DNA of 64,000 nucleotides from a virus (taxonomy: Duplodnaviria; Caudoviricetes). The position numbers were made by a program, and so were the translations under genes. Where the stretch lies: IMG/VR virus record IMGVR_UViG_3300027730_000005. One strand, written 5' to 3'. The notes below the pieces were generated by a model, which was not told where the DNA came from, ran no database searches, and was given only the letters and a program-made list of their open reading frames with translations. Positions 11,006 to 61,195 of this stretch are shown here, one piece after another (the first letter of the stretch is position 1; each line of letters opens with the position of its first letter).

Positions 11006-11296
11006 TTATCCTGCAAACACAGTTGCACTACCACTAGCTACAAACGTACAACCAGCAAGGCCATCACCAACTCTTGCCAACGGCTTGCCGCCGACAAATA
11101 CTGTAGAACTTCCACTTGAAATTGGTGCCACGTGCGGCGGACATTTCGTGCCTGCTGGACGCAAATGAGGCGTACTGAGATCGCCAAGTCTAGCAGCAGG
11201 TTTTGAATTGACAAATACTGTGGCACTGCCTTGAGCAATGCTAAATCCGCTGCAATGTGGAACTCCTTGATCACCCAATCTCGCTACTGGTCGCAT
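11006..11296 (-). CDS. PAAR spike-tip protein (gp5.4-like)
   Basis: PVARLGD, PAARLGD and PLARVGD repeats, and SGSSTVFVGG. Start reassigned. Confidence 0.92.
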   Translation of the reverse strand: MRPVARLGDQGVPHCSGFSIAQGSATVFVNSKPAARLGDLSTPHLRPAGTKCPPHVAPISSGSSTVFVGGKPLARVGDGLAGCTFVASGSATVFAG

Positions 11297-11486
11297 ACGC
11301 TTTCTCCATAAGTCTATTAAACAGACCCAGCCAGGCGTCAATTTCTTTGTGCTGCTGTTGAGTATGCGGCTCCGGAGGGATTTCCGGAAGAAATTCTATC
11401 ACATGGTCCAGGTCGTCAGGGATATCGTCATAGCAATCGTATACTTCAATTATATCGCGCCTCATGATTACAAATCTGTGTCCCAT
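11271..11486 (-). CDS. Hypothetical protein
   Basis: ATG 4 nt below TATAAATA (11491-11498); start reassigned. Confidence 0.65.
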   Translation of the reverse strand: MGHRFVIMRRDIIEVYDCYDDIPDDLDHVIEFLPEIPPEPHTQQQHKEIDAWLGLFNRLMEKAYATSSEIG

Positions 11487-11840: not shown

Positions 11841-12086
11841 TTACTCCCCATATCCGCCAGCAGTTTCTTCAATGTATTTTTTTAATTCTTGAAACCCCCC
11901 AATGTGGTTGTTATGTACAAAAATTTGTGGTACTGTTCTTGCTGTGGGCACTGCTTCTAACAAGTCTTCTCGGGTGTATCCGTGCCCAATTTTCTTTTCT
12001 TCATATGCAATATTGCGTTGCTTTAACAAAGCTTTGGCTTGGTCGCAGAATGTGCAATTGTCTTTTGACCAGACGATGGCTGTCAT
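11841..12086 (-). CDS. Glutaredoxin
   Basis: CTFC active site and TVPQIF...IGGF; adjacent to nrdB. Confidence 0.92.
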   Translation of the reverse strand: MTAIVWSKDNCTFCDQAKALLKQRNIAYEEKKIGHGYTREDLLEAVPTARTVPQIFVHNNHIGGFQELKKYIEETAGGYGE

Positions 12087-12095
12087 ATTTTTCCT

Positions 12096-13196
12096 TTATA
12101 AATTTGGTAGTTGATCATAATCAAGTTCAGACGACATAATACCAATTACGTAGTTAGTTGACTCATTTTCTTGCAAGGCCGTCTGTTTGCTGGATGTTGA
12201 GACATGTTTGTTGAACCATGGAATAGGTGTGCTGCGTGGTGCTGCGGTTTGATATTTGATACCAATGTCTTTGAGAGCACCAACTGCTGTGTAGTCCACA
12301 AAATCTTTGAGAATGTTTGCATTGAGACCAATTACTGGACCCATCTTGAACAAATGCTCAGCCCAGGCTTTTTCTTCACGGATCACATCCTGATACAAGG
12401 CATACACTTCTGCTTCGCAAGCGTCTTTGACCGCAGCAAATCGGTTGTCTTCTTTGATAACTTGGTTGATAAGATATGCAGTCCATCCTTTGTGCAGCAA
12501 TTCGTCTTGCAGAATCAATCCAATAATGTTGCCATTGCCAATGAAGATTTTGTTCTCTACCATGGCCAAGCTAGTGGCAAACGATACCATGAATCGGAAT
12601 GCTTCCAGTGCATAACTGGCATGCAATGCCATCCAAATTGTTCGAACATGTTCACGTTCTTCCACCGGTTGCCCTAGTTCTTTTGCACAGTTGATTCTGT
12701 GTAAGTCATCATAATATCGTCCTACACTTGATGCCATGTCTACAATTTCTGTGGTGTCATGAATGGTATTGAAAACATCTTTAGGCACGTTATAGATATT
12801 ACGAATGATATGGCTGTAACTCTTTGAATGGATATTTGTTTCAAAGAATCCCCAGTTATACATCAATGCTTCTACTTCGGGCAAGCTGCATACCGGCGTG
12901 AATACCTGTGTAGGTCCACGTCCTTGCAAACTGTCCAATGCAGTCTGCCGCAGTAAATTGCTAGTAAAGATATGTTTGACTGCATCACTGGCATCTTTAA
13001 AGTCATTGGCATCTTTGCTGAGACTGATCTCTTCAGGTTGCCAGAAGAAGCCACGTGCAGTGGCTTCAAAGTCTGCAATCTTTTTATACTTGACTTCTTC
13101 AAAGCGTTGAATAGTAACTGGACCTGCTGGGTCCAGAAACATCTTGCGATTCAAATAATCTGTCTTTGTGTTTAGGTTATATTGTGCTTGGCTCAT
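12096..13196 (-). CDS. nrdB: Ribonucleotide reductase class Ia beta subunit
   Basis: FFWQPEEI, ETNIHSKSY (metal ligands plus radical Tyr), LEAFRF, DELLH, ALQENE. Confidence 0.95.
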   Translation of the reverse strand: MSQAQYNLNTKTDYLNRKMFLDPAGPVTIQRFEEVKYKKIADFEATARGFFWQPEEISLSKDANDFKDASDAVKHIFTSNLLRQTALDSLQGRGPTQVFTPVCSLPEVEALMYNWGFFETNIHSKSYSHIIRNIYNVPKDVFNTIHDTTEIVDMASSVGRYYDDLHRINCAKELGQPVEEREHVRTIWMALHASYALEAFRFMVSFATSLAMVENKIFIGNGNIIGLILQDELLHKGWTAYLINQVIKEDNRFAAVKDACEAEVYALYQDVIREEKAWAEHLFKMGPVIGLNANILKDFVDYTAVGALKDIGIKYQTAAPRSTPIPWFNKHVSTSSKQTALQENESTNYVIGIMSSELDYDQLPNL

Positions 13197-15025
13197 AATT
13201 TACAACTTTCGCAATCTTCTTCTTCATCAAAATCTATATGTTCTAACATCGGCGGTGCGATTTCAGCATCAGCTTTGCTACCCTGTTTATTCACGAGGCT
13301 ATAATAGAAGGTCTTGAGGCCCCACATATGTGCTTGCATCAAGTTCTTTGCTATCAATGTAGTTGGAACTTTACGGTCAGCGTAGTGTGCAGGGTTATAG
13401 AATGTGTTAGTACTGATACTTTGATCTACATAAGCCGCTAATACTGCTGCGGTTTTTAAGTAACCATCACAGTCTTTTTGTTCCCACATCAATTGATACT
13501 TGTTCTTTAGTTTGTGATATTCTGGAACAACTTGTGTAAAGCTACCTGCTTTACTTTCTTTAACACTAATCAAACTCATGGGCATCTCAATGCCATTTGT
13601 ACTGTTAATAACTACACTACTTGATTCTACTGGAGCAATAGCCATTTGTGTAGCATTACGTACACCGTGTTCTTTCATGTTAACACGTAATGTTTCCCAA
13701 TCTAGTTCTGGAGCAAAGTCAGTTAATTGATTAACACCTTTGGCTCTTAGTTCCCAGGGGAATACTCCTTGACCATATCTTGTCTTGTCGCTACCTTCAC
13801 ACTTGCCTCTTTCTTTGGCAAGTTCTACACTTGCTTCTGTTAGATAGAATGCTAGATGTTCTGCCCAAATTTTAACTTCAGCTAATGCATCTTTCTCACC
13901 GTACTTGAGACTACGCTTTGCATGCCAATATGCTAAGTTAGTTACACCAATGCCCAATGGACGAATCTCATCGTTGCTCAGTTTAGACTGAATGGAGAGA
14001 AAGTCTTGATAGTCAAGAATGTTATTGAGGCTACGATGCAATATGCGACAAGCACGGCGCATATCTTCGGGATTTCTAAACGCACCCCAATTTATACTTC
14101 CAAGTGTACAGAGGGCTATCCTGCCGGTATCGTCATCTAATCGCTTAAAACTTTTTGTCGGAAGTAGGATCTCACAACAGAGGTTGCTTTGATAGATGGT
14201 ATGATACTCTGGATCAAACGGTCCTTGTTTCATTACATTATCTATGAACACAAGATAGATACGTCCAGTGTCAGTGCGCTCTTTCAGTATGCCTGACTTG
14301 AATACTTCTTCTGCACTCATAGTCTTAGTACGCAGGTCTTTGCGCTTTTCATATTTAACATAAAGTTCTTCAAATCTTTCTGTATTTTGATAGAACGCTT
14401 CGTACAAATCAGGAACTTCATTTGGATCAAAGAATGTTATTTGTTCTTTGTTTTTGAATCTTCTCCAGAAGAAAGCACTAAGCACAACCCCATAATCCAT
14501 ATGACGGACTCGGGTTTCTTCTGTTCCTTGGTTGTTCTTAAGGACAATAAGATCATCAAACTGATGATGCCAAATGGGATAAAAAACTGTAGCACTTGCA
14601 TTACGAATACCTCCTTGCGAATTGTGTGTCAATACCATTGGACCATTGCTACTAGAGGAAGCAAAAAAGGTATGAGTATCTTCTACTGTAATATCAATAT
14701 AGCCAGTATCGTTTTGCTGTTCAAAATCAGAAACTAGCAAACGAGTAAATCCTGTTTCAGTGAGAACAAGATGATCGTTAGTAAGTTCCTTAGGTTTTTT
14801 CTGTAAGAACGATCCCGAGTCGCTCCATACCATTATGGGGTGATTTACGGAGCAGTTTAACACAACACCGTTTTCAAACTGCAAACGAACTTGATCTTCT
14901 GTTTTTACAATAGTATCCCACTTGTTAGTTACTGCTTTAAACAATATATCTCCTTGCTCATTTTTTGTTTTAACTTTCATCCCTATCACAAGGTCTTTAA
15001 TCTGAATCTTTTTAGTTTTTACCAT
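13193..15025 (-). CDS. nrdA: Ribonucleotide reductase alpha, C-terminal part, preceded by a split-intein C-fragment
   Basis: After residue 135: SQGGIRNASAT, QSNLCCEI, IALCTL, KTFYYS, and C-terminal CESC. Confidence 0.93.
   Translation of the reverse strand: MVKTKKIQIKDLVIGMKVKTKNEQGDILFKAVTNKWDTIVKTEDQVRLQFENGVVLNCSVNHPIMVWSDSGSFLQKKPKELTNDHLVLTETGFTRLLVSDFEQQNDTGYIDITVEDTHTFFASSSSNGPMVLTHNSQGGIRNASATVFYPIWHHQFDDLIVLKNNQGTEETRVRHMDYGVVLSAFFWRRFKNKEQITFFDPNEVPDLYEAFYQNTERFEELYVKYEKRKDLRTKTMSAEEVFKSGILKERTDTGRIYLVFIDNVMKQGPFDPEYHTIYQSNLCCEILLPTKSFKRLDDDTGRIALCTLGSINWGAFRNPEDMRRACRILHRSLNNILDYQDFLSIQSKLSNDEIRPLGIGVTNLAYWHAKRSLKYGEKDALAEVKIWAEHLAFYLTEASVELAKERGKCEGSDKTRYGQGVFPWELRAKGVNQLTDFAPELDWETLRVNMKEHGVRNATQMAIAPVESSSVVINSTNGIEMPMSLISVKESKAGSFTQVVPEYHKLKNKYQLMWEQKDCDGYLKTAAVLAAYVDQSISTNTFYNPAHYADRKVPTTLIAKNLMQAHMWGLKTFYYSLVNKQGSKADAEIAPPMLEHIDFDEEEDCESCKL
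14621..15025 (-). mobile_element. Split intein C-fragment (IntC, 135 aa)
   Basis: Block B CSVNHP, block F YIDITVEDTHTFFA, block G THN followed by extein Ser+1. Confidence 0.9.
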
Positions 15026-16121
15026 TTTCGTGCTCTTTTCTTGTTATTGTTTCAATATCATTAAATTTTGCAGACATGTCATATTGTTTGACTTTCAGTA
15101 CTGTTTTTCCTCTAGTTGCTCTATAATATTGATCTAATAATTCTTTTGATTTAAAGAATTTACTGTCTACCTTATAGAAAACTTTAGTGGTCTGATTAGC
15201 ATAATCGTTAATATTAATTTGATATTCTTCTTTGTCTATTATAACAGTTTTTCTTTTAGAAATTGAATAAACTACCACATTTCCGGTGTTATGATGTTTA
15301 TATAAATCCCTATCATAATTTTCTTTTTTTACTAATTTCTTCTCTCCTGTTACCCTGTCTGTAACTGGAATTAAACCAAATGTATTTCCAATGTACCGAC
15401 CATTTGAATTGTTGAAATCTTCTTGTGTTATAGTTACTCTAGTGTTAGTGGTTGTGTCGTGTGCAACCACTTTCCCTTTAGTAAGTCCCACATATCTACT
15501 GTCCGCTTGAAATACTGATTTTGGAATCCTACATGATTGTCCAGTCACTGTATCCAATGCTAAGACATAATTCTTAAATTCAGTAGAATGAATGCTAGGA
15601 TCAAAATCTGAAGTATATATCTTTTTAATTCCGGTTTCTGTTCTTATATTCATCATACCTTTTGAAATATGTAGATGTTTTCCAGTAGCAAATTCTTCCA
15701 CACTTACCCGATACGTATTTCCACTAGAATCTTTGCATAATACAGACCCTGCTCCGCAGTTTGAGCCACCTGCAGTTAGAGAGTTTATAAAAATAGAGTT
15801 CTTACCAACTTGATGCTTTTGATGGAATATTTTTTCTGCCGTAAACGCATCACTCCTGGTAGTGAAGTATTCAATTCTATACTCAAATAAGTATGGCATC
15901 TTTTTTAGTTTTTCTTTAAAATCAACTACGGTTGAACTAGTAAAGTATTTTACCAACAAATCGTGCTTATTACAGCCTTCAACCCCACGAGAACCGGAAT
16001 AAAACTTTCCAGTCTCTGTATCTTTAATAGTATAGCAGTAGTAAGCCGAATTTGATAGCATATTAGTTTGTGCTCCGTTGTATGATTCTAGTAAATAATT
16101 TAGCATTTCGTATACCCCCAT
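15012..16121 (-). CDS. Free-standing GIY-YIG-like (Seg-type) homing endonuclease
   Basis: YYCYTIKDTETGKFYSGSR, FTAEK, FINS, then about six ~30-aa repeats. Visibly AT-rich and lies between the nrdA halves. Confidence 0.75.
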   Translation of the reverse strand: MGVYEMLNYLLESYNGAQTNMLSNSAYYCYTIKDTETGKFYSGSRGVEGCNKHDLLVKYFTSSTVVDFKEKLKKMPYLFEYRIEYFTTRSDAFTAEKIFHQKHQVGKNSIFINSLTAGGSNCGAGSVLCKDSSGNTYRVSVEEFATGKHLHISKGMMNIRTETGIKKIYTSDFDPSIHSTEFKNYVLALDTVTGQSCRIPKSVFQADSRYVGLTKGKVVAHDTTTNTRVTITQEDFNNSNGRYIGNTFGLIPVTDRVTGEKKLVKKENYDRDLYKHHNTGNVVVYSISKRKTVIIDKEEYQININDYANQTTKVFYKVDSKFFKSKELLDQYYRATRGKTVLKVKQYDMSAKFNDIETITRKEHENGKN

Positions 16122-16124
16122 TAT

Positions 16125-16130
16125 TATTTA
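16125..16130 (-). promoter_or_regulatory. Late promoter core for the endonuclease
   Basis: TAAATA 3 nt upstream of the first ATG (16121); a second copy lies at 16152-16157. Confidence 0.6.
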
Positions 16131-16150
16131 TGCTTGTGTGCGAAAAACTA

Positions 16151-17104
16151 TTATTTAGCAATAGAATCATCCTCATCTAGTACTTCTATCCAAGTATCCG
16201 GAGTTACACAGCAAGACCTTAAATCTCCAAACCACTTCTTTAAAAATGGTATCATGCCGGTATGCATGATCTCACCACCGCGGATGGGTGAGCCTAGTGG
16301 TCGTAGTCGTCCAATCTCTAACCCAATGCCAGCACGTTTGCTGGCATACTTGGCCATCATTTCCCCACTAGCGAATATACTATCGAGATCATCATCGCTG
16401 CGAATAAGAACGCAGCTAGAGAATTGTTTAGTAGGAGTTCCAAGACCAGCGAGAACAGGAGTAGCAAGAGTAAATAAGCCATCACTTGCAGCATTGTAAT
16501 ATTCCTTTATATAGCGCATTCTTGCTGAGTTTGGTTCTTCCGAGTGAAAAACTGTAGCCGCTGCAACCATGTAACGAACTTGGGGAGTTTCATAAGTTTC
16601 CTTTGTGGCACGATTCTTCACAAGATATTTTTCAATCAATTGCTCGATAGCGGCATAGCCATATTGTTCGTCCTTGGAATGATCTATCATGTCCTGCATA
16701 CGGTTCCAATCAGATTCGTCGTACCATTCCAATAGTTCAGGAGTGTACAAGCCCGTGGCTACGTTTTTCTTTACAATCTCATACAAGTGGGGAGGCTCAT
16801 AAGAGCCATATACATCTTTTCTCAACATGCTAAGACGTTGCTTACCTGCCACATATTGATAGTTAGTGTGCCCAACATCTGGATTATGTTCTATATCGAT
16901 CAAGTCCACAATGGCTCGTAGTGTGATACCATCAATTTCTTTGGTAGTGATGCCATCATAAAAGTGCATCTGGGCTTTGATTTCTACCATGCTTTGACTT
17001 ACATCTGCAATGCCTGCACATACTTTGGCAATTTGGGTTTGCCACTTTTCTAGGCTTAATTGTTCTTTTCTTCCGTTACGTTTAATAACTGTGATTTGTG
17101 TCAT
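16151..17104 (-). CDS. nrdA: Ribonucleotide reductase alpha, N-terminal part, ending in a split-intein N-fragment
   Basis: ATP-cone (VIKRNG), ETPQ, TPVLAGLG, QFSSCVLI, GIG...R, KKWFGDLRSC, then a non-RNR tail. Confidence 0.93.
   Translation of the reverse strand: MTQITVIKRNGRKEQLSLEKWQTQIAKVCAGIADVSQSMVEIKAQMHFYDGITTKEIDGITLRAIVDLIDIEHNPDVGHTNYQYVAGKQRLSMLRKDVYGSYEPPHLYEIVKKNVATGLYTPELLEWYDESDWNRMQDMIDHSKDEQYGYAAIEQLIEKYLVKNRATKETYETPQVRYMVAAATVFHSEEPNSARMRYIKEYYNAASDGLFTLATPVLAGLGTPTKQFSSCVLIRSDDDLDSIFASGEMMAKYASKRAGIGLEIGRLRPLGSPIRGGEIMHTGMIPFLKKWFGDLRSCCVTPDTWIEVLDEDDSIAK
16154..16210 (-). mobile_element. Split intein N-fragment (IntN, 19 aa)
   Basis: CVTPDTWIEVLDEDDSIAK fits intein block A (C-x-x-x-x-T-x-I/V) and sits exactly where SQGG should follow RSC. 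Confidence 0.88.
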
Positions 17105-19878: not shown

Positions 19879-20199
19879 TTAAACTCTAAAACTTTCTCCA
19901 CATCCGCAGCGGTCACGTTCGTTAGGATTGCTGAACTGAAATCCTTCGTTGAGCCCTTGTCTAGTGTAGTCTACTTCAAGACCTTGCAGATATGCACCGC
20001 TTTTGGGATCAACAAATAATTTACATTTGTTGGAATCAATACATATATCGTCCGGTTGCACAGTGTCTACATATTCTAACACATAAGCAAGCCCAGAGCA
20101 ACCTGTTGTTTTGACTCCCACACGAATACCAATTCCGTGTCCTCGACGTTGAATGGTTTGAGTTATTTTTCGAGCAGCAGTTTCAGTTATTGTTATCAT
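19879..20199 (-). CDS. iscA: Fe-S cluster assembly A-type carrier
   Basis: TTGCSGLAY, FSNPN, CGCGESF. Confidence 0.95.
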   Translation of the reverse strand: MITITETAARKITQTIQRRGHGIGIRVGVKTTGCSGLAYVLEYVDTVQPDDICIDSNKCKLFVDPKSGAYLQGLEVDYTRQGLNEGFQFSNPNERDRCGCGESFRV

Positions 20200-21446
20200 T
20201 TGATATGTTGATAGTAAGAGTTTTTATCTTCGTCTGACAGCAGATCCCATAATTTTTTATTGTTAAAACTCAGATCAGTCTTGGTTAGATTATCCCATTT
20301 TGCAGTAGTTGATATGTAAGTATCCCAATCGATCTCTGAAAAAGTATCACTAGTTAATTGATCTAAGAGAGATTGTATGCTTTTTTTAAAAACTTGATTC
20401 CTATTGAATAACGAATGCCCTTGTAATAATATCTCCTGAATCTGTACTGCTAATTTTTTCCGCAGATACAATGGCAGGGCTAACAATGACAAATGATCAC
20501 ATTCTGACAGCGAGTTGTCAAATATTTTAATATCACGCCCGGAGATATTAAACTTCCCAAAATAATCTAAAAATTCTTTAAGATAGGCTATATTGTTAAT
20601 ATAAAAAGTTGGAGTGATGTGCAAATTAACATTCGAATATGTTTCCGCTAACAATTTAAATTTTTGCAAATTATTGTGTATCTTTTCAAATTTCACTGGA
20701 TATCTTACATATACAAAGTTATCATCATCAGTTGAATCAACACTTATAGCAAACGATAAACTTTTAAAATTATTAGGCCATTTGTTAAAAATTTCTTCAA
20801 GAAACACTGATCCATTTGTGCCTATTTGCAAATTAATCTTGTTGCTGAGCTTTTCTTCTTGTAACCAGTCGGTTAGCATGTACAGGTCTGATTGGATAGT
20901 TCCTTCACCGCCCATAATGATTAATTTAAAATCTTCGTGCTGGTTGCTTATTTCTCTTATGTTAGTTTTTAATGTTTCAAAATACATTGGATCATTACCA
21001 ATGGATTTAGGTACCGTTTGGTTGGTGTTCCATATTGAATCATATAAGCTACTGGTATTAGCATTACATATTCTACAGGCCATATTGCATTTGTTACTAA
21101 ATGTAACAAACATAAGAAAGTTATCAATTTTTTTAGTTGTTAAAAATTTATTCAACTCTCGAGGACTTAAAGAAGCTAACGCCCGTTGTCTACCGCTAAA
21201 CTGATTGTTAGTTTCTTTTTTATGACATAAATGACAATTTTTATCAATCTTCCTTGATTCAATATGTTGTTTGACTTCGGCGATAGGGTTATCACCAGCG
21301 GATCGATACCAGCAACAAGGATCTTGTTTAATCGAACTAAAGTGAACACCTAAATTAGAATATGGTATTACACATATATGTTGATTGTCCATTGACCATT
21401 GATTAAACTCCACGCTGTAGTCAAATGTTGTACTATGCGGAATCAT
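20196..21446 (-). CDS. Radical SAM protein with N-terminal Cys cluster (SPASM/twitch-like)
   Basis: CNMACRIC, MGGE, ISVDS, and N-terminal CVIPY..CC..CHLC. Confidence 0.88.
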   Translation of the reverse strand: MIPHSTTFDYSVEFNQWSMDNQHICVIPYSNLGVHFSSIKQDPCCWYRSAGDNPIAEVKQHIESRKIDKNCHLCHKKETNNQFSGRQRALASLSPRELNKFLTTKKIDNFLMFVTFSNKCNMACRICNANTSSLYDSIWNTNQTVPKSIGNDPMYFETLKTNIREISNQHEDFKLIIMGGEGTIQSDLYMLTDWLQEEKLSNKINLQIGTNGSVFLEEIFNKWPNNFKSLSFAISVDSTDDDNFVYVRYPVKFEKIHNNLQKFKLLAETYSNVNLHITPTFYINNIAYLKEFLDYFGKFNISGRDIKIFDNSLSECDHLSLLALPLYLRKKLAVQIQEILLQGHSLFNRNQVFKKSIQSLLDQLTSDTFSEIDWDTYISTTAKWDNLTKTDLSFNNKKLWDLLSDEDKNSYYQHIK

Positions 21447-21821
21447 TTAATGCTTGCTCTTGTAATCAATTATTGCTGCTTTGATCGCATCTTCTGCAAG
21501 TATTGAACAATGAATTTTAACTGGGGGGAGGGCAAGCTCGCCAGCAATCTCGCTATTCGTAATCTCTGCCGCTTGGGCAAGTGTCCGTCCTTTGACCCAT
21601 TCAGTAACCAGCGAACTCGACGCAATCGCGCTTCCGCAACCATACGTTTTAAATCTTGCATCTGTGATAATTCCATCAGTTACTTTTATGCTCAATTGCA
21701 AAACATCACCGCAACTTGGTGCTCCAACGAGTCCTATCCCGACTCCCTCTTCGTCTTTTTTATAAGATCCAACATTTCTTGGATTATTATAATGATCGAG
21801 AACAGCTTCACTATACGCCAT
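21447..21821 (-). CDS. iscU: Fe-S scaffold protein
   Basis: DHYNNPRNVG, APSCGDV, YGCGSAIASSS, LPPVKIHCSILAEDA. Confidence 0.96.
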   Translation of the reverse strand: MAYSEAVLDHYNNPRNVGSYKKDEEGVGIGLVGAPSCGDVLQLSIKVTDGIITDARFKTYGCGSAIASSSLVTEWVKGRTLAQAAEITNSEIAGELALPPVKIHCSILAEDAIKAAIIDYKSKH

Positions 21822-22407
21822 ACTTATCTCCTATTATAGATTTTACTACATCGTCTGATTGAAAATAATCCCATTTGGATCTATTCTCTTCTCCTAGTAT
21901 ATACCTTAAATTTTTCCTTCCTCCAATTACGGTAGGATCTATACCTAATGTGTATCCTTGCCTGTAAGGAATGATATGATCAAGTTGATAATCAGTTTTC
22001 CTTTTTCCAGTTATTTTAGCTGTTCCTTCTTTTTTCATAGCATACACAGTTCTATAAGTTGCTTTCTGGCATTCTCTTTTGTATGCAGTGAAATTATCAT
22101 CTACATAGTTTTTAGGTCTGAGATTATTCAGTTTACCATTTTTGTTAGGATTATCAATTAACCACTTTTCTCGTTGTCTTTCATTTGGAATACCTTTGTT
22201 CCACCCATGTCCTTTAGCAAGCCCCGATGTGTTTTGTTTTGCTTTTTGGTCATCATTGAGTTTAACACCCTTATTCCATGGAATGTGGCCTGGTCTGTTA
22301 TGTGGATTTTTACACGGTTGAGAACAATATTCAAGTAACCGCGGCTTAGTAATAAATTTGTTACCGCAGAATAAACATATTTTTTGTATACCATACTTGT
22401 TTTTCAT
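21811..22407 (-). CDS. HNH homing endonuclease
   Basis: CxxC..CxxxC, repeated P/GWNKG (NUMOD3-like), LDHIIP...NLRYI...ENRSK. AT-rich. Confidence 0.8.
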   Translation of the reverse strand: MKNKYGIQKICLFCGNKFITKPRLLEYCSQPCKNPHNRPGHIPWNKGVKLNDDQKAKQNTSGLAKGHGWNKGIPNERQREKWLIDNPNKNGKLNNLRPKNYVDDNFTAYKRECQKATYRTVYAMKKEGTAKITGKRKTDYQLDHIIPYRQGYTLGIDPTVIGGRKNLRYILGEENRSKWDYFQSDDVVKSIIGDKYGV

Positions 22408-22412
22408 ACAAG

Positions 22413-22418
22413 TATTTA
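22413..22418 (-). promoter_or_regulatory. Late promoter core
   Basis: TAAATA 5 nt above the HNH ATG. Confidence 0.65.
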
Positions 22419-22444
22419 TGATAGGCGCACCAGTCTGTGCAGGG

Positions 22445-25304: not shown

Positions 25305-25364
25305 TTTAAAATCTCCTAGTTAGTGGGTTTTTGCCCTACACTTATTTATGAATTTGGCAAAAAA

Positions 25365-27640: not shown

Positions 27641-28684
27641 ATGAACAACTACTTTTGCGTTTTACCTTGGTACAGTCAAGAACTAGGATCTCAAAATAGT
27701 CCATGTTGCCTATTGCCGGACAAATACAATATTAATCAAATAAAACAAGATTTGCTCAATAACATTCCATCTGTAGATTGTAAAAAATGTTGGGATATAG
27801 AATCCACTGGAAACAAAAGTCGCCGTCAATTTGAGAATGAATTTTTAGACTATAAATTGGATAGAGATTTAGATAAGATTCAACAAGATTGTGCAGACTT
27901 AAAACATCAAACTTTACTTTATCAAATAACCACTAGTAATCTGTGTAATCAGGCATGTGTGAGCTGTGATAGCAGCTTATCAACTAAATGGGCGCAGATT
28001 GAAAAACGCATGGACATAATTCCTAAATCTCAATATCAAATTGAATTAGATCCAACAATTATCAATTACAGTTCAGCAAAACGAATTTCTTTGCTGGGCG
28101 GCGAACCGTTATTTGACCCTAAGACTTTTAAAATATTACAAAACTTAATTGACCACAATAACACTAATTGTTTTATATCATTGATCACCAATGGCAGTAT
28201 ACATCTAAACATACAACAAATTGACTTACTGAAGCAGTTTAATGATTTGAATATTTGTATCAGCATTGATGGCATTGGTACTGTATTTGAATACATGAGA
28301 TGGCCCGGAAAGTGGAATAACCTACTAGAAAATATTAAACAGTACAAAAACATAGCAAAAAATATCAGTGTAAGCTACACAATTAGTTCATTGAATGCTA
28401 TGTACTATAACGAAACTGTTGAGTGGTTTCAACAGAATAATCTAACATACAATCACAATGTTGTTTCATCTCCAGAATGGCTATCACTAGCAAACATGCC
28501 AACCATACTAAAACAACACTTAACTCAACAAGATAATTTTATCAAAATGTATTGTAAGCCCAATGGATGTGAGATAGATTTAAAAATCCTAACACAAAAT
28601 ATTGTTAAACAAGACCATGCAAAAAAAATAAACATCAAAGACTATATGCCTGAACTAGCTGCTGTTATTTTTGATACTGTATAA
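27641..28684 (+). CDS. Radical SAM protein with N-terminal Cys cluster
   Basis: CNQACVSC, LGGEP, ITNGS, ISIDG, N-terminal CVLPW..CC..CKKC. TAAATA is 4 nt upstream. Confidence 0.88.
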   Translation: MNNYFCVLPWYSQELGSQNSPCCLLPDKYNINQIKQDLLNNIPSVDCKKCWDIESTGNKSRRQFENEFLDYKLDRDLDKIQQDCADLKHQTLLYQITTSNLCNQACVSCDSSLSTKWAQIEKRMDIIPKSQYQIELDPTIINYSSAKRISLLGGEPLFDPKTFKILQNLIDHNNTNCFISLITNGSIHLNIQQIDLLKQFNDLNICISIDGIGTVFEYMRWPGKWNNLLENIKQYKNIAKNISVSYTISSLNAMYYNETVEWFQQNNLTYNHNVVSSPEWLSLANMPTILKQHLTQQDNFIKMYCKPNGCEIDLKILTQNIVKQDHAKKINIKDYMPELAAVIFDTV

Positions 28685-29783
28685 ATTCAGCAACTTCAGG
28701 GAATACTGCTGTCATGTTTAAGTTTCTGCGATGATCATTTTTTTGTAACTCTTCCAGTACTCTTGTTAAATTGTATTGTTGTGATCCTAGAATTTTCAAT
28801 TGTTGTATCCAAGGTTGGCAGTAATTGGATTGAGATTTAAAATACTCAATCATTGCATTGGGCATGGACTCTAGTCCGATGGACTCTAGTCCGTAAATTC
28901 CAAATGCTTGATGTGTGTATATTTCTATATCGTCACCAAATACAGATTTTGAAAAGTTTTGTTCATGCCAGTTGTACACATTATTAAGACTTAAAACATT
29001 TAAAATGCTAGCAGTCACAGTCAATGACAACATGCTGTTGTGAGGTAAATTTTTCTGCCACCACAATAAATTTTCTTCAACTTTATCCCATTTAGCTGGA
29101 TATCGCAAATACTCAAATTGATTACCAATCTCGTCGATACTGAAACTTATTCGAGCAAACTTAAATTTTTCAATAAGTTCTTTTGTTGATTGATCTATGC
29201 GTTGGGTACCATTAGTGTTGTACATTAATTTGATTTGGCTAACATCTGTATGATCAACTAGGTGTTGTAATATTTGTTTATGAGTTAATGTTAAAAATGG
29301 CTCGCCTCCCCACATACGAAGTTCTCGCAAATTTGAAAGATCGAGAGCCTGCAATTTTGTTTTTATAAAATTGTCAATGTTAGGCCTAACATTGAGGCCT
29401 TTTATCCCAAGTTCTTTTCTCCAGGTGGTACTTAGCTCCGGGCCGCATGTTACACAAGCCAAATTACAAGTATAGTCAATATTAACGTCAAGGTATTGAA
29501 TGCCTGGATCATGTGTTTCTGCACCATGGGTTTCAAGGTAACCTACCCGCATGCTTTTTTTATTTGTCTCTTCTTGAGCAATACATTTAGAACAAAAAGA
29601 TTTTGGCAAAATATTTTGTTGATTTTTAACACGCAGTTGGATTAGATCTGGGTGAAAAAAATCAACATGATCCGAAGTTTGAATTAACTGGTTTGCCCAA
29701 CAACATGCCGAGTATGATACTGATTGTTTGTCAATTTTGGCTAGCATAAGCCCATGATGTATCCTAGGGCAGTATTTGCTCAT
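28665..29783 (-). CDS. Radical SAM protein with N-terminal Cys cluster
   Basis: CNLACVTC, WGGEP, YNTNGT, FSIDE, N-terminal CPRI..CC..CSKC. Confidence 0.88.
   Translation of the reverse strand: MSKYCPRIHHGLMLAKIDKQSVSYSACCWANQLIQTSDHVDFFHPDLIQLRVKNQQNILPKSFCSKCIAQEETNKKSMRVGYLETHGAETHDPGIQYLDVNIDYTCNLACVTCGPELSTTWRKELGIKGLNVRPNIDNFIKTKLQALDLSNLRELRMWGGEPFLTLTHKQILQHLVDHTDVSQIKLMYNTNGTQRIDQSTKELIEKFKFARISFSIDEIGNQFEYLRYPAKWDKVEENLLWWQKNLPHNSMLSLTVTASILNVLSLNNVYNWHEQNFSKSVFGDDIEIYTHQAFGIYGLESIGLESMPNAMIEYFKSQSNYCQPWIQQLKILGSQQYNLTRVLEELQKNDHRRNLNMTAVFPEVAEFIQYQK
28864..28893. repeat. 15-bp tandem duplication
   Basis: ATGGACTCTAGTCCG x2, in frame (GLESI-GLESM). Confidence 0.9.
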
Positions 29784-31216
29784 GATGTTTTGATCTTTCC
29801 TAACAACTGCTTGAGTTTGGTACTTTGCACATCTGCTGAGATTTTTGGATCTGACGAGTCATTACTATCTTTAGGAGTCGGACGGTCCCACCTGCTGCCT
29901 GAATTGATAGATTCTGCTGGAGTGACTGACGCTTTTGCTTTGATAGAATCCATCAAGCTGGGTTTGCGGAACGAATTTTCACCGCCTTCGTCTCCAGCAT
30001 CTGTAATACGCATAGTGTCAATATCATATTCAAGATCAATTTTTTGTCCTACTCCTGTTGAACTGCGCGACTTCATACATTGAATTTGATACTTGCCACG
30101 CTCTTTCATTTGTCTGCTGGTAAGGATACCAAACACATTATCTGCTGTGTTGATCTTGCTAATACCACCTGAAATATGACTGTGGTCAAACTCTACTTCT
30201 TCTACAGCTGATCGATTCAACTGACTTGCAGTGACCATGAGTATTTGTAATTCTTTGGCCAAATTACGTAGTTCTTCACTCACATATTTGTCTTTAACAA
30301 ACAAATCATTAGGACTTACTTTTGCGCTCACTGGCATCAACAAATCCAAATAGTCAATCATCACAAAGTCCACACGCTTGCCTGTTTGAATTTGATATTC
30401 TTTCAAGTATGCTCGTATATCATTGATGTTGCTCTGTGCCGGTAATCCTTTCACTTGATAGTTTCCAGATTTCTTACCCACTAGTTTGACTTTGAGCTCA
30501 GTGGTATCAATATCTTTACGAATATCCTTGGTGCTCATGTTGGTCAGCATAGCATCAGTTCTTAGACTTGTGAGTTCTTCACTCAACTCCAATGTGATGT
30601 ACACCCCGCTCAATCCTGTTTGTACCCAATTCAATGCTATGTTCATCATGACCAAACTCTTGCCCGAACCCGACCCACCAGCAAAGATGTTTAATTCACC
30701 GCGACTGAATCCACCATACAACAGTCGATCCATCTGCGGCCATCCTGTGCTGACTTGTCCGCCAGAGTTGAAATACTTTTCAATTCTACCCTTGGGATCA
30801 GCAAAGTAATCAGTGCCCATGTCTTTAGTCAAGCTGATTTGCACAGCATCTTTGATCAGTTTCTCCACTGGATCATAATCGCCTTTTTCCAACAAGTCTG
30901 CTGCTTTGAGAATTGCACGTTCCAGTTCTTGACGGCGAGTGAATGCTTCAAACTCTGTCATGAACCATTCAAAGTGTCCTTCGTTCAGCTCCGGCACTGG
31001 TTGTAGTTTCACTCCTGTTGTGGCTGATATCTGTGCTCTATCAGGAAGTGTTTTGTATTTGTCTCCGTGTTCTTTAAGAAACTCAGCAGCTGGTCTCAAA
31101 CTTCGATCAAAGTTTTCTGGATTATAGATGTTCTGTACACGTACATAGCCTTGTGCGTCTTCCAACATCATTTCCAAAAATAACTTTTGTACTTCAATAG
31201 AATAATCTTTAAGCAT
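29780..31216 (-). CDS. gp41: Replicative DnaB-like helicase (gp41-like)
   Basis: AGGSGSGKS, ITLEL, MIDYLDL, ASQLNRS, SGGISKINTAD, MKSR. Confidence 0.92.
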   Translation of the reverse strand: MLKDYSIEVQKLFLEMMLEDAQGYVRVQNIYNPENFDRSLRPAAEFLKEHGDKYKTLPDRAQISATTGVKLQPVPELNEGHFEWFMTEFEAFTRRQELERAILKAADLLEKGDYDPVEKLIKDAVQISLTKDMGTDYFADPKGRIEKYFNSGGQVSTGWPQMDRLLYGGFSRGELNIFAGGSGSGKSLVMMNIALNWVQTGLSGVYITLELSEELTSLRTDAMLTNMSTKDIRKDIDTTELKVKLVGKKSGNYQVKGLPAQSNINDIRAYLKEYQIQTGKRVDFVMIDYLDLLMPVSAKVSPNDLFVKDKYVSEELRNLAKELQILMVTASQLNRSAVEEVEFDHSHISGGISKINTADNVFGILTSRQMKERGKYQIQCMKSRSSTGVGQKIDLEYDIDTMRITDAGDEGGENSFRKPSLMDSIKAKASVTPAESINSGSRWDRPTPKDSNDSSDPKISADVQSTKLKQLLGKIKTS

Positions 31217-58036: not shown

Positions 58037-58047
58037 TGTTATTTATG

Positions 58048-59623: not shown

Positions 59624-61195
59624 TTACCTCACCATTACAGAGATAAAGGGCATGGGTTCAATCACTTCTTCTCCATGATCTCGCATCTGTGTGCTTAATT
59701 CAGCATAGAAACTTTGCAGTATAGTAAGCATACGAACAGCTAATATAGTGGCCATTATAAGGTCGTCTGTTTCACCAATTTTGGCGGCATAACTTGTGCC
59801 ATGTGCCACAAAGTTCTTAAGCTCGCTGATCAAGCTCTTGCTGTTAATGGTCATTCTCCCCGATTCTATCAGATTTTTCAATTTACTACAAGCAGCCAAC
59901 TTGGTTTTGTTTGTGGTGTTAAATCCTTTGCGGAATCTACGTGTACCTGGGCCAGTGGTATCACTAAGAAAATATCCTTTGATGTTCTCTTCACCCCATT
60001 CAGCAATAGAAATCAATGCTGCTTCGCCAATGGTATTGTTTTCTACTGAATAGTAAATGCTTTTCTCATCGCCCACAGTATCATATATGTGTTTGATAAT
60101 ATCCTTTAAGATACGTATCTGCTCTGGAATAGGTGTTTTGTTATGTCGCCATTCACCAACTTGACGTGTGGTGTTGGCTTCAAATATCTGTATAGCGGCG
60201 GGGTCTCCACCTGTTCCCAAGCTGGGATCTAATGCCACAACGTACACTTGATCTCGGCGTATGGGTTCATACCAACGCACTTGCCCAGTCTTGTGTATAG
60301 GATCAATCCCAGTGAGATCTAACAATTTGGCAGGTGCTATTAAAGTCTCATCATTGATAATGAATTCACAATTCATCTCACGACGGAATCGATCATCGCC
60401 CAACTGCGCTCGCATATTATCGCCCCAGGCTTGATCACGATCTGGATGTTCTTCCCAATAGCTGCGATAGGCTTTGAATCCATTCATACCCAGCTCAGTG
60501 GGATTGCCATATTCATCTTCACATTTGTTGGCCCCTTTCCACAAGTAAGCAAACTGGTCCTCGTCTGAATTGGGGGTTGATGTGATAATAGCTTTACCAC
60601 CTGTGGCCAGTGTGGGCGATATACTTGTCCAAAACTCTTTGGCAATAGTAGGACGCACATAAGCAAACTCGTCGGCGTACAGCAAGGTAATACTCATACC
60701 ACGACCAGTTGTTTCAGTTGTGGTAGCTGAAACTATTCGGCTACCGTTTTCAAAGTCTATGGATCCTTTGTTGTAGTTTGTGGCACCTGCTCGTATGTGA
60801 TCAGGGCACAACTCATAAGCAAATCTTATTCGTTGCATGATCTCTTGAGCGCCGGTGTATTTGTGTGCTGCTATCAAGATAGTGGAATCAGGTACAAACA
60901 TAGCGTACCAAAGTATGTAACCTGCTGCTGATGTTGATTTGCCGGTCTGTCGCGGCATCATGGAGATTGAATATCTGTTGTGATGATATGTATCAATCAG
61001 GTTCTTTTGATATTCAAAAGGATGATACAGCATCTTGCCCTGTGTGGGGTGCTGGATATAGAAGAAGTTGTCCATGAAGTAGTGTGGCCCTGTATCAGGG
61101 TCAGCACATTTCAAAAATTCGTCTAGTTCTTCTTCGGTAAATTTCTGACGACGATGTGGTGCCTTGATCAGCACCCCTTCAATTGGTTTTGCCAT
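59624..61195 (-). CDS. terL: Terminase large subunit (gp17-like)
   Basis: PRQTGKS, YADEFA, ITSTPN, VALDPSLG, DDLIMA. Confidence 0.95.
   Translation of the reverse strand: MAKPIEGVLIKAPHRRQKFTEEELDEFLKCADPDTGPHYFMDNFFYIQHPTQGKMLYHPFEYQKNLIDTYHHNRYSISMMPRQTGKSTSAAGYILWYAMFVPDSTILIAAHKYTGAQEIMQRIRFAYELCPDHIRAGATNYNKGSIDFENGSRIVSATTTETTGRGMSITLLYADEFAYVRPTIAKEFWTSISPTLATGGKAIITSTPNSDEDQFAYLWKGANKCEDEYGNPTELGMNGFKAYRSYWEEHPDRDQAWGDNMRAQLGDDRFRREMNCEFIINDETLIAPAKLLDLTGIDPIHKTGQVRWYEPIRRDQVYVVALDPSLGTGGDPAAIQIFEANTTRQVGEWRHNKTPIPEQIRILKDIIKHIYDTVGDEKSIYYSVENNTIGEAALISIAEWGEENIKGYFLSDTTGPGTRRFRKGFNTTNKTKLAACSKLKNLIESGRMTINSKSLISELKNFVAHGTSYAAKIGETDDLIMATILAVRMLTILQSFYAELSTQMRDHGEEVIEPMPFISVMVR

Follow-up and report, generated by a model that had tools for sequence, protein, structure and literature searches.

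The window analysed here, a 64,000-nt metagenomic stretch of viral DNA (IMGVR_UViG_3300027730_000005), carries on its minus strand a class Ia nrdA gene, encoding the large subunit of ribonucleotide reductase (RNR), that is divided between two open reading frames (ORFs), each with part of an intein at its broken end. Judged from the sequences, it is highly likely that a class 1 intein, naturally split at an atypical position, interrupts nrdA of an uncultured freshwater jumbo-type phage at the place corresponding to E. coli C292/S293, and that its N- and C-terminal parts (IntN and IntC) probably rejoin the two pieces of NrdA by trans-splicing. The decisive evidence that the extra residues are an intein cut in two is their homology to uninterrupted inteins at the same site in other phages. 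The alleles of the locus suggest that the split would have arisen when a free-standing gene for an endonuclease of predicted GIY-YIG type came to lie in the turn after the second strand (beta2) of the intein, the 'S1' position; with the endonuclease gene in that turn, three proteins are encoded, namely NrdA(1-298)-IntN (19 aa), the endonuclease, and IntC (135 aa)-NrdA(299-773).

How would a complete enzyme be assembled from these parts? The acidic IntN and the Lys-rich head of IntC would associate and complete the Hint fold, Cys1 would form a thioester that is then attacked by Ser+1, and cyclization of the terminal Asn would release a 773-aa NrdA with an RSC-SQGG junction, which would in turn pair with NrdB, the product of the next gene downstream. 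The most likely role of the endonuclease is to carry the element, or intein and endonuclease as a unit, into nrdA alleles that lack the intein or the endonuclease gene when phages co-infect a cell.

Anatomy of the interrupted nrdA locus

The ORF list gives a minus-strand gene order of nrdA-N, a 369-aa ORF, nrdA-C, nrdB and a glutaredoxin gene. Gene 1 (16151..17104, 317 aa) ends with KKWFGDLRSC followed by CVTPDTWIEVLDEDDSIAK and a stop codon. Its extein part (16211..17104, 298 codons) takes in the ATP-cone, all-alpha domain and beginning of the barrel, where the motif QFSSC lies, and closes with GDLRSC, whose Cys is the equivalent of E. coli C292. IntN (16151..16210) consists of the 19 codons for CVTPDTWIEVLDEDDSIAK and a TAA stop, and encodes block A and strand beta2, then an acidic tail. 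Gene 2 (13193..15025, 610 aa) opens with MVKTKKIQIKDL, and its residues 128-146 end in GPMVLTHN/SQGGIRNASAT, where the slash, here and below, marks the boundary between intein and extein. IntC (14621..15025, 135 codons) thus contains the Lys-rich head MVKTKKIQIKDL, block B (NCSVNHP), block F (YIDITVEDTHTFFA) and block G (MVLTHN). The nrdA-C extein (13193..14620, 475 codons and stop) begins at Ser+1 of SQGGIRNASAT and holds the equivalents of C439/E441, C462 and Y730/Y731 as well as a C-terminal CxxC.

Between the two halves lie a spacer of 29 nt (16122..16150, minus strand), which runs from the IntN stop to the first ATG of the endonuclease ORF and contains CATAAATA, and the free-standing endonuclease gene itself (15012..16121, minus strand), whose length of 369 aa is counted from that first ATG; other possible starts are at 16106 and 16061. 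The endonuclease stop codon falls 11 nt past the IntC ATG, giving a 14-nt overlap (GAA AAT GGT AAA AAC TAA), and of the 1125 nt that separate the IntN stop from the IntC ATG, 1110 belong to the ORF. Two ORFs of the same orientation, each with an extein and an intein part, with a separate endonuclease ORF in between, is the make-up of a fractured gene. A preliminary description of this DNA had placed the broken gene at 13193-17104, and the ORF list agrees with it to the base; its proposal that removal of 19 + 135 residues leaves a NrdA of 298 + 475 = 773 aa holds as well. The free-standing endonuclease gene that separates the halves is predicted from structure comparison to be of GIY-YIG type.

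Comparison with RNR profiles and structures locates the point at which the exteins meet. Pfam places the ATP-cone, the all-alpha domain and the first 61 barrel positions in gene 1 and barrel positions 70-522 in gene 2 from residue 135 onward, and nrdA-C matches Ribonuc_red_lgC with E 1e-94. Similarly, positions 60-347 of phrog_84 are covered by gene 1 residues 1-298 and positions 346-795 by gene 2 residues 134-609. In comparisons with E. coli R1 structures, residues 4-299 of gene 1 cover R1 5-293, and residues 135-592 of gene 2 cover R1 292-748 (E 1e-120). Because these matches abut on R1, the exteins meet at E. coli C292/S293, which we take to be the start of specificity loop 2. The RSC-SQGG junction that had been postulated at the start of loop 2 is therefore borne out. 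So is the postulated division of catalytic residues, seen from motif positions and the R1 alignment: gene 1 contributes QFSSC, with the equivalent of C225, and gene 2 contributes NLCCEI, IALCTL, FYYS and, at its C terminus, CESCKL, such that a complete active site needs both halves.

Intein halves, contiguous relatives and position of the break

A tblastn search with gene 2 against 50,697 phage records revealed phages in which the corresponding intein is whole. Shewanella phages Thanatos-1 and Thanatos-2 encode a single 895-aa NrdA with a 144-aa insert at the corresponding place, and Vibrio phages SUMAE and VPALA have a 146-aa insert here together with a second intein at the NLC site. When joined, the IntN and IntC of the window are colinear end to end with these inserts and no block is missing; the blocks shared in the alignment are A (C-[VL]-T-P-D-T), B (C-S-x-N-H-P-I-M), F (Y-I-D-I-T-V-x-D-T-H-x-F-F) and G (V-L-T-H-N). 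The three-gene layout of the window recurs in Acinetobacter phage KARL-1, whose IntN is 12 aa long and whose two NrdA pieces have 298 and 647 aa; among the records searched, it is the sole cultured phage with this split. The inteins of Thanatos, SUMAE/VPALA and KARL-1 belong to one family with that of the window, having 41-46% identity to its IntC, the same site or one a single residue off, and the same blocks. They differ from it in several respects: the inteins of Thanatos and SUMAE are in one piece; Thanatos and KARL-1 have Cys+1 and an insertion between S and C (KS/C...HN/CSQGG), unlike the C/S insertion of the window; and in KARL-1 the IntN is without an acidic tail and the C-terminal part of the endonuclease is a DUF7487 module. 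The KARL-1 annotation lists two 'aerobic NDP reductase large subunit' genes and a hypothetical protein, and the Thanatos, SUMAE and VPALA inteins are likewise not annotated as inteins. Among metagenomic sequences, eight relatives are contiguous (147-191 aa), and the closer relatives are 70-82% identical in IntC.

The 135 residues of gene 2 that do not belong to RNR match the Pfam families Intein_splicing (E 2e-5) and PT-HINT (E 0.006), and the residues expected to carry out splicing are retained throughout the homologues. Cys1 follows the N-extein directly (RSC/C-V-T-P-D) and is present in all 118 homologous N-fragments, 113 of which also fit the strict pattern C-[VLI]-[THS]-P-[DENS] right after [KR]-S-C. 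The first 13 residues of IntN, CVTPDTWVEVLDE, form a nearly invariant core; the remainder varies in sequence and is always acidic. IntN lengths range from 14 to 33 aa with a mode of 19. At the other boundary, L-[TS]-H-N is followed by Ser in 120 of the 120 IntC proteins listed, and the window has the codon boundary AAT/TCG. Block B C-S-x-N-H-P, block F D-I-T and H-T-F-F, and L-T-H-N-S-Q-G-G are invariant in a 21-row alignment (A1), and the same block B, F and G columns are at least 98% conserved over 117 IntC homologues. Retention of every catalytic residue down to ~40% identity is what would be expected of a working trans-splicing intein rather than of association tails or a dying gene; conservation and homology together indicate that IntC is probably maintained for splicing.

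The two halves also carry opposite charges. The net charge of the window IntN is -5 and that of the first 22 residues of IntC is +6, and the homologue means have the same signs (-5.6 for IntN over 118 sequences and +5.7 for the IntC head over 105 sequences). The preliminary description had noted this charge complementarity, together with intein blocks A, B, F and G and a break right after block A, and each of these points stands: motifs and conservation in homologues identify the four blocks of a class 1 intein, and alignment to contiguous inteins places the break after strand beta2, between ...W-V-E-V-L-(D-E) and K-K-I-Q-I-K and before block B. An IntN of 19 aa, far below ~40 aa, and a break directly after beta2 are the marks of an S1-type split.

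For the fold, we turned to a contiguous relative (P0048:293-449) that is 81% identical to the window IntC and in which the two halves are, in effect, already fused (...VEVLK/MVKTKK...). Foldseek comparison of its AlphaFold2 (AF2) model with the PDB returned, among the top 50, only Hint-fold autoprocessing domains, nearly all of them inteins, with template modelling (TM) scores of ~0.5 on a model of moderate quality, E values down to 1.6e-5 and probabilities that were all 0.99-1.00; matches include VidaL (6vgv), NrdJ-1, gp41-1, Npu DnaE, and BIL2 and hedgehog domains. A sequence profile of the intein family matches the Pab PolII intein (E 1.4e-5). On this model the split falls in the turn that links the second strand (residues 12-18) to the third (residues 20-25), the S1 position of VidaL and PolB16.

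Several points weigh against this interpretation of the halves. The Pfam intein matches are below the curated gathering scores. The evidence for the fold comes from the contiguous relative and not from the two fragments of the window themselves; its model was built from a shallow 21-row alignment with a mean predicted local distance difference test (pLDDT) of 65.6, and pLDDT is below 50 over residues 134-157, which are most of block F and all of block G. IntC is at least as conserved as the extein beside it, with a mean pairwise identity of 77% versus 70% in the next 200 extein residues, which favours a maintained intein; this comparison is biased, however, since the search that collected the homologues had used IntC as its query. 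Moreover, the KARL-1 pair is without charge complementarity (-1/-1), and for this reason electrostatics cannot be the whole story of association.

Arrangements of this general kind have been known since 2009-2014. Dassa et al. (2009) described the fractured genes NrdA-1 to NrdA-7, NrdJ-1, gp41-1 and IMPDH-1 with split inteins (PMC2677866). The window resembles these in that a phage gene of DNA metabolism is divided over two ORFs whose broken ends carry intein halves, with a free-standing endonuclease gene, in the window of predicted GIY-YIG type, between them, in that the endonuclease stop overlaps the IntC start, which was noted there as typical of fractured genes, and, as for NrdA-2 and NrdJ-1, in having a negative N half and a positive C half (PMC2677866). 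It differs in site and in the nature of the split: the NrdA inteins of that study lie directly N-terminal to the thiyl-radical Cys (the C439 site) and are canonically split, with an IntN of ~100 aa and an IntC of ~35-40 aa (PMC2677866), whereas the window intein lies at C292/S293 and is split 19/135 aa.

Few split inteins with a peptide-sized IntN are known from nature. A listing of natural atypically split inteins from 2026 counts only four, AceL-TerL (25 aa), GOS-TerL (37 aa), VidaL (16 aa) and PolB16 (15 aa), thus spanning 15-37 aa, and assigns VidaL and PolB16 OarG to the S1 position, right after beta2, and AceL-TerL and GOS-TerL to S2 (PMC13014065); the 15-aa IntN of PolB16 is the shortest characterised (PMC10189870), and the 12-aa IntN of the KARL-1 homologue is below that record. 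The comparison with known atypical split inteins that had been suggested for the window shows that it shares the S1 break position with VidaL and PolB16. Like these, it has a very short IntN, a long IntC and a break immediately after beta2, and is a phage or metagenomic element. Unlike VidaL, PolB16 and the TerL inteins, its host gene is nrdA rather than a gene for a helicase, UvsX, PolB or TerL; its nucleophile pair is Cys1/Ser+1. We detected no sequence relation to the known atypically split inteins: identity to 6vgv is 16% over the structural alignment, and the profile search did not recover this structure.

Is the pair new? The preliminary description had considered it a possible new natural trans-splicing pair, and this stands only in part. 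We found no description of an atypically split NrdA intein in the full-text literature searched, which took in few subscription journals and no curated intein databases, so that a prior listing is possible. The pair is, however, no singleton: clustering of proteins at 90% identity gives 671 clusters for N-fragments and 228 for proteins that contain IntC, freshwater metagenomes hold this split intein in abundance, and KARL-1 has a homologous split. In a 50%-identity library, ~30 representatives have an N-terminal IntC and ~5 are contiguous. The general arrangement is already known; the window intein is a new member of it and stands for a large S1-type NrdA family that has gone unrecognised.

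Alternative explanations for the broken gene

The only serious rival is that the gene works in pieces: the two products would form a non-covalent (alpha-a/alpha-b)2 large subunit, with the intein halves serving only as interaction tails. The precedent is Aeromonas phage Aeh1, in which a free-standing homing endonuclease gene (mobE) splits nrdA, active-site residues lie on two polypeptides and the broken ends bear charged tails (Friedrich 2007; Crona 2010, PMC3045599). As a further point against splicing in the window, the split Aeh1 NrdA is active without it; its tails are unprocessed, essential and oppositely charged, and were speculated to derive from a degenerate intein (PMC3045599). The intein halves of the window are likewise oppositely charged. 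However, the Aeh1 tails have no intein motifs, undergo no splicing and persist in the mature enzyme, the interruption is at another site (between C439/E441 and C462), and the endonuclease is of HNH type (PMC3045599). An intein-less split of the Aeh1 type does not describe the window, whose nrdA has intein blocks, is interrupted at C292/S293 and encloses the gene of an endonuclease predicted to be of GIY-YIG rather than HNH type. Furthermore, Cys1, the block B His, block F, the His-Asn pair and Ser+1 vary little or not at all among more than 100 diverged sequences, and mere tails would need none of them. From what is known of E. coli R1, a leftover 135-aa Hint domain at the start of loop 2 would also be expected to occupy the dimer and effector interface. 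We therefore regard non-covalent assembly as improbable and trans-splicing as the preferred reading.

A second hypothesis is that invasion by the endonuclease inactivated nrdA, that the pieces are pseudogene remnants and that the phage uses the RNR of its host. Intein-riddled nrdA genes of Campylobacter phages have indeed been proposed as degenerating (PMC3653736), and many relatives of the window are fractured two or three times. What makes decay very improbable here is the state of the genes: both halves are intact full-length ORFs that keep all catalytic residues, nrdB and the glutaredoxin gene are retained directly downstream, and exteins, intein and nrdB are conserved in hundreds of clusters with ORF lengths that are tightly held (314-319 and 608-617 aa among relatives).

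We give no greater probability to repair at the level of RNA or translation, in which the 1.15-kb insert would be a group I intron with an endonuclease ORF, or would be crossed by ribosomal bypass, and the resulting precursor would be spliced in cis. Group I introns with endonuclease ORFs are frequent in phage RNR genes (PMC3653736), and contiguous relatives of the window intein exist. Against this, no Rfam family, Intron_gpI included, was found in 14800..16400 at E <= 1 with permissive filters, and only 29 nt of the insert are outside the ORF, which leaves no room there for an intron core. IntC has its own ATG and a MVKTKK head conserved in more than 100 loci, and the one in-frame fusion of endonuclease and IntC (L008) needed a 1-nt deletion in an A-run, the frames being otherwise separate. 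The only RNA run found shares 6% of the words with the stretch.

Finally, an assembly artefact or chimera, which the metagenomic origin of the window and depth spikes at conserved extein segments might suggest and which the preliminary description had proposed to check, is effectively refuted: the exact gene 2 protein and identical layout occur on 22 contigs of different assemblies and sources (ENA and JGI, up to 256 kb), at least 96% of the stretch is present in at least 12 lake or freshwater metagenome runs, single contigs bridge both junctions without mismatch in three of the four other lake runs compared, and the layout recurs in the cultured phage KARL-1.

Endonuclease, allele states and phage context

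The 369-aa ORF between the halves has no useful sequence match in Pfam, PHROG or the PDB, with none in Pfam or PHROG even at E 10. It has 97 homologous clusters, nearly all of 364-369 aa depending on the ATG called, and its AF2 model has a pLDDT of 87.8. The whole, elongated model gave no match with Foldseek. An exhaustive VIA-align comparison of residues 26-116 with 48,161 chains gave as best match the I-TevI catalytic domain (Z 6.3, 83 of 92 residues), followed by the UvrC GIY-YIG N-domain (Z 5.0), PD-T4-3 (Z 4.8) and T4 EndoII (Z 4.1); R.Eco29kI and Slx1 score lower. The matches, though modest in Z value, are consistent and domain-wide. Y41-S42-G43, E96 and N113 are invariant among the homologues and C29-Y30-T31 nearly so. 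The N-terminal domain is 28% identical to the middle ORF of KARL-1 (E 9e-7), the C-terminal part of which is the different module noted above. On the structural model, the middle ORF is most likely a free-standing homing endonuclease of predicted GIY-YIG type.

Beyond this domain, residues ~125-369 (15012..15750) are modelled by AF2 as about six similar modules of a beta-hairpin and a short helix that have no PDB counterpart, and VIA-align gives a weak match of residues 308-360 to the I-TevI DNA-binding domain (Z 2.8); these repeats are presumably the DNA-binding part. Contigs in two runs skip or replace 567 nt within the endonuclease gene (15338..15906, with a side of only 20 nt), which may reflect a variant or partly deleted endonuclease in co-occurring strains.

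Regulatory signals at the start of the endonuclease gene, as in Aeh1 and in the study of Dassa et al. (2009), were also considered. The CATAAATA in the 29-nt spacer matches 7 of 8 positions of the T4-type late promoter box TATAAATA and is not enriched in the window (6 found versus 4.5 expected). An inverted repeat, GAUGAUUCUA and UAGAAUCAU, surrounds this box and the first two endonuclease ATGs and folds no better than shuffled sequences (z -1.67). Since neither is distinguishable from chance, we make no claim for a regulatory hairpin or a late promoter at this place. No RNA structure was found at the IntC start, and a scan for sigma-70 promoters and terminators gave nothing informative. As a separate observation, minus-strand copies of CATAAATA lie at 22413-22420, 25343-25350, 58040-58047 and 16125-16132, most of them just upstream of minus-strand genes, and the sequence may be a candidate for the late promoter core of this phage.

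The locus exists in several states. One low-depth contig (word depth 3 versus 56, run X11) represents an intein-less allele, in which position 16218 is joined to 14621 through six other letters; its coding strand reads TTA AGA AGT TGT TCG CAA (L-R-S-C/S-Q), where the codons for R, S and C differ synonymously, and it has exactly the predicted splice junction RSC/SQGG. Syntenic loci from other lakes, flanked as in the window by a tailspike-like gene and a 140-aa ORF upstream and nrdB downstream, contain further states. In one (L009) the intein is plainly contiguous (...LDEDDSDNKDKKIQ...); in a second (L007) IntN is fused straight to the retained start codon of IntC (...VEVLK-MVKTKK...). In a third (L008:3001-5232, P0066) the contiguous intein includes in frame the last 40 residues of the window endonuclease (KELLDRYY...EEHENGK) and then IntC, a fusion that arose by a large internal deletion and the loss of one A in the A-run at the stop/IntC overlap. 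Other relatives have different nucleases before IntC (P0032 with DUF7487, and the Cys-rich P0080). The coexistence of an empty site, a contiguous intein, a split intein invaded by an endonuclease and a decayed endonuclease fits a homing cycle.

In many close relatives (P0016-P0124; L007, L008 and L009) nrdA is broken again downstream. The middle fragments, 344 and 389 aa long, have IntC at their start and, at their end, the N-terminal half of another intein whose split is apparently canonical, with tails of ...VRELTDDDDIKDLLI or ...TKNRGYVRADELVETDELCVEI; a separate C-terminal RNR ORF follows. In these relatives nrdA is thus in three pieces with two split inteins. A second insertion site also occurs ~7-9 residues downstream in loop 2 (SQGGIRNA/C..., ...HN/SATxxFPIWH; P0114, P0122, P0340, P0349 and P0057), and Campylobacter phage IBB_35 (L010:1378-1884) has a contiguous annotated intein at this site (GRGG/CHSPD...CSHN/SSNL). 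Three further proteins (P0389, P0392 and P0398) have an IntC-like head at their start and an end of ...HN/S[AS]T, which suggests that S1-type splits may be present at the downstream sister site too. By these sequences, loop 2 is an apparent intein hot spot.

What would such a family offer? Inteins with a short IntN are wanted for semisynthetic protein labelling, since the short half can be made by chemical synthesis and natural pairs outperform artificially split ones. The NrdA family offers hundreds of natural variants, a conserved IntN core of 13 residues, charge steering, and a 12-residue relative in a culturable phage. That the family stayed split while diverging to ~40% identity would imply efficient trans-splicing of an essential enzyme, and reasonable speed and yield would be expected of an intein that must rebuild such an enzyme within one infection cycle. 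On balance we lean towards regarding the window as the type example of an undescribed S1 NrdA family with an IntN of 12-19 residues, efficient trans-splicing, use as orthogonal tools and a whole homing cycle in one lake population. If so, it would supply new IntN tools of peptide size that are probably orthogonal, and would be a rare natural system in which every stage of the intein/endonuclease homing cycle is found in a single lake population. The alleles document gain, decay and loss of the endonuclease gene, and point to the S1 turn of a mini-intein, besides the canonical position of the endonuclease domain, as a recurrent landing site for free-standing homing endonuclease genes.

With regard to the phage itself, no near-identical DNA was found in cultured phages. 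The window also encodes a terminase (59624..61195) that shares 53% identity with its counterpart in the Pseudomonas jumbo phage PA5oct group, as well as helicases, a ligase and a UvsX-like recombinase. Downstream of the interrupted gene, nrdB (12096..13196, minus strand), encoding the small subunit, overlaps the nrdA-C stop by 4 nt and is followed by the glutaredoxin gene (11841..12086), which was assigned from the ORF list and Pfam. A PAAR-motif protein (11006..11341 and neighbours) is encoded two to three genes downstream of these two. Three low-GC islands (0.35 versus ~0.42-0.45) are seen at 14001-16000, 20001-22000 and 28001-30000. The first corresponds to the insert of intein and endonuclease; the other two coincide with radical-SAM genes, and their composition suggests that they are further recently acquired DNA.

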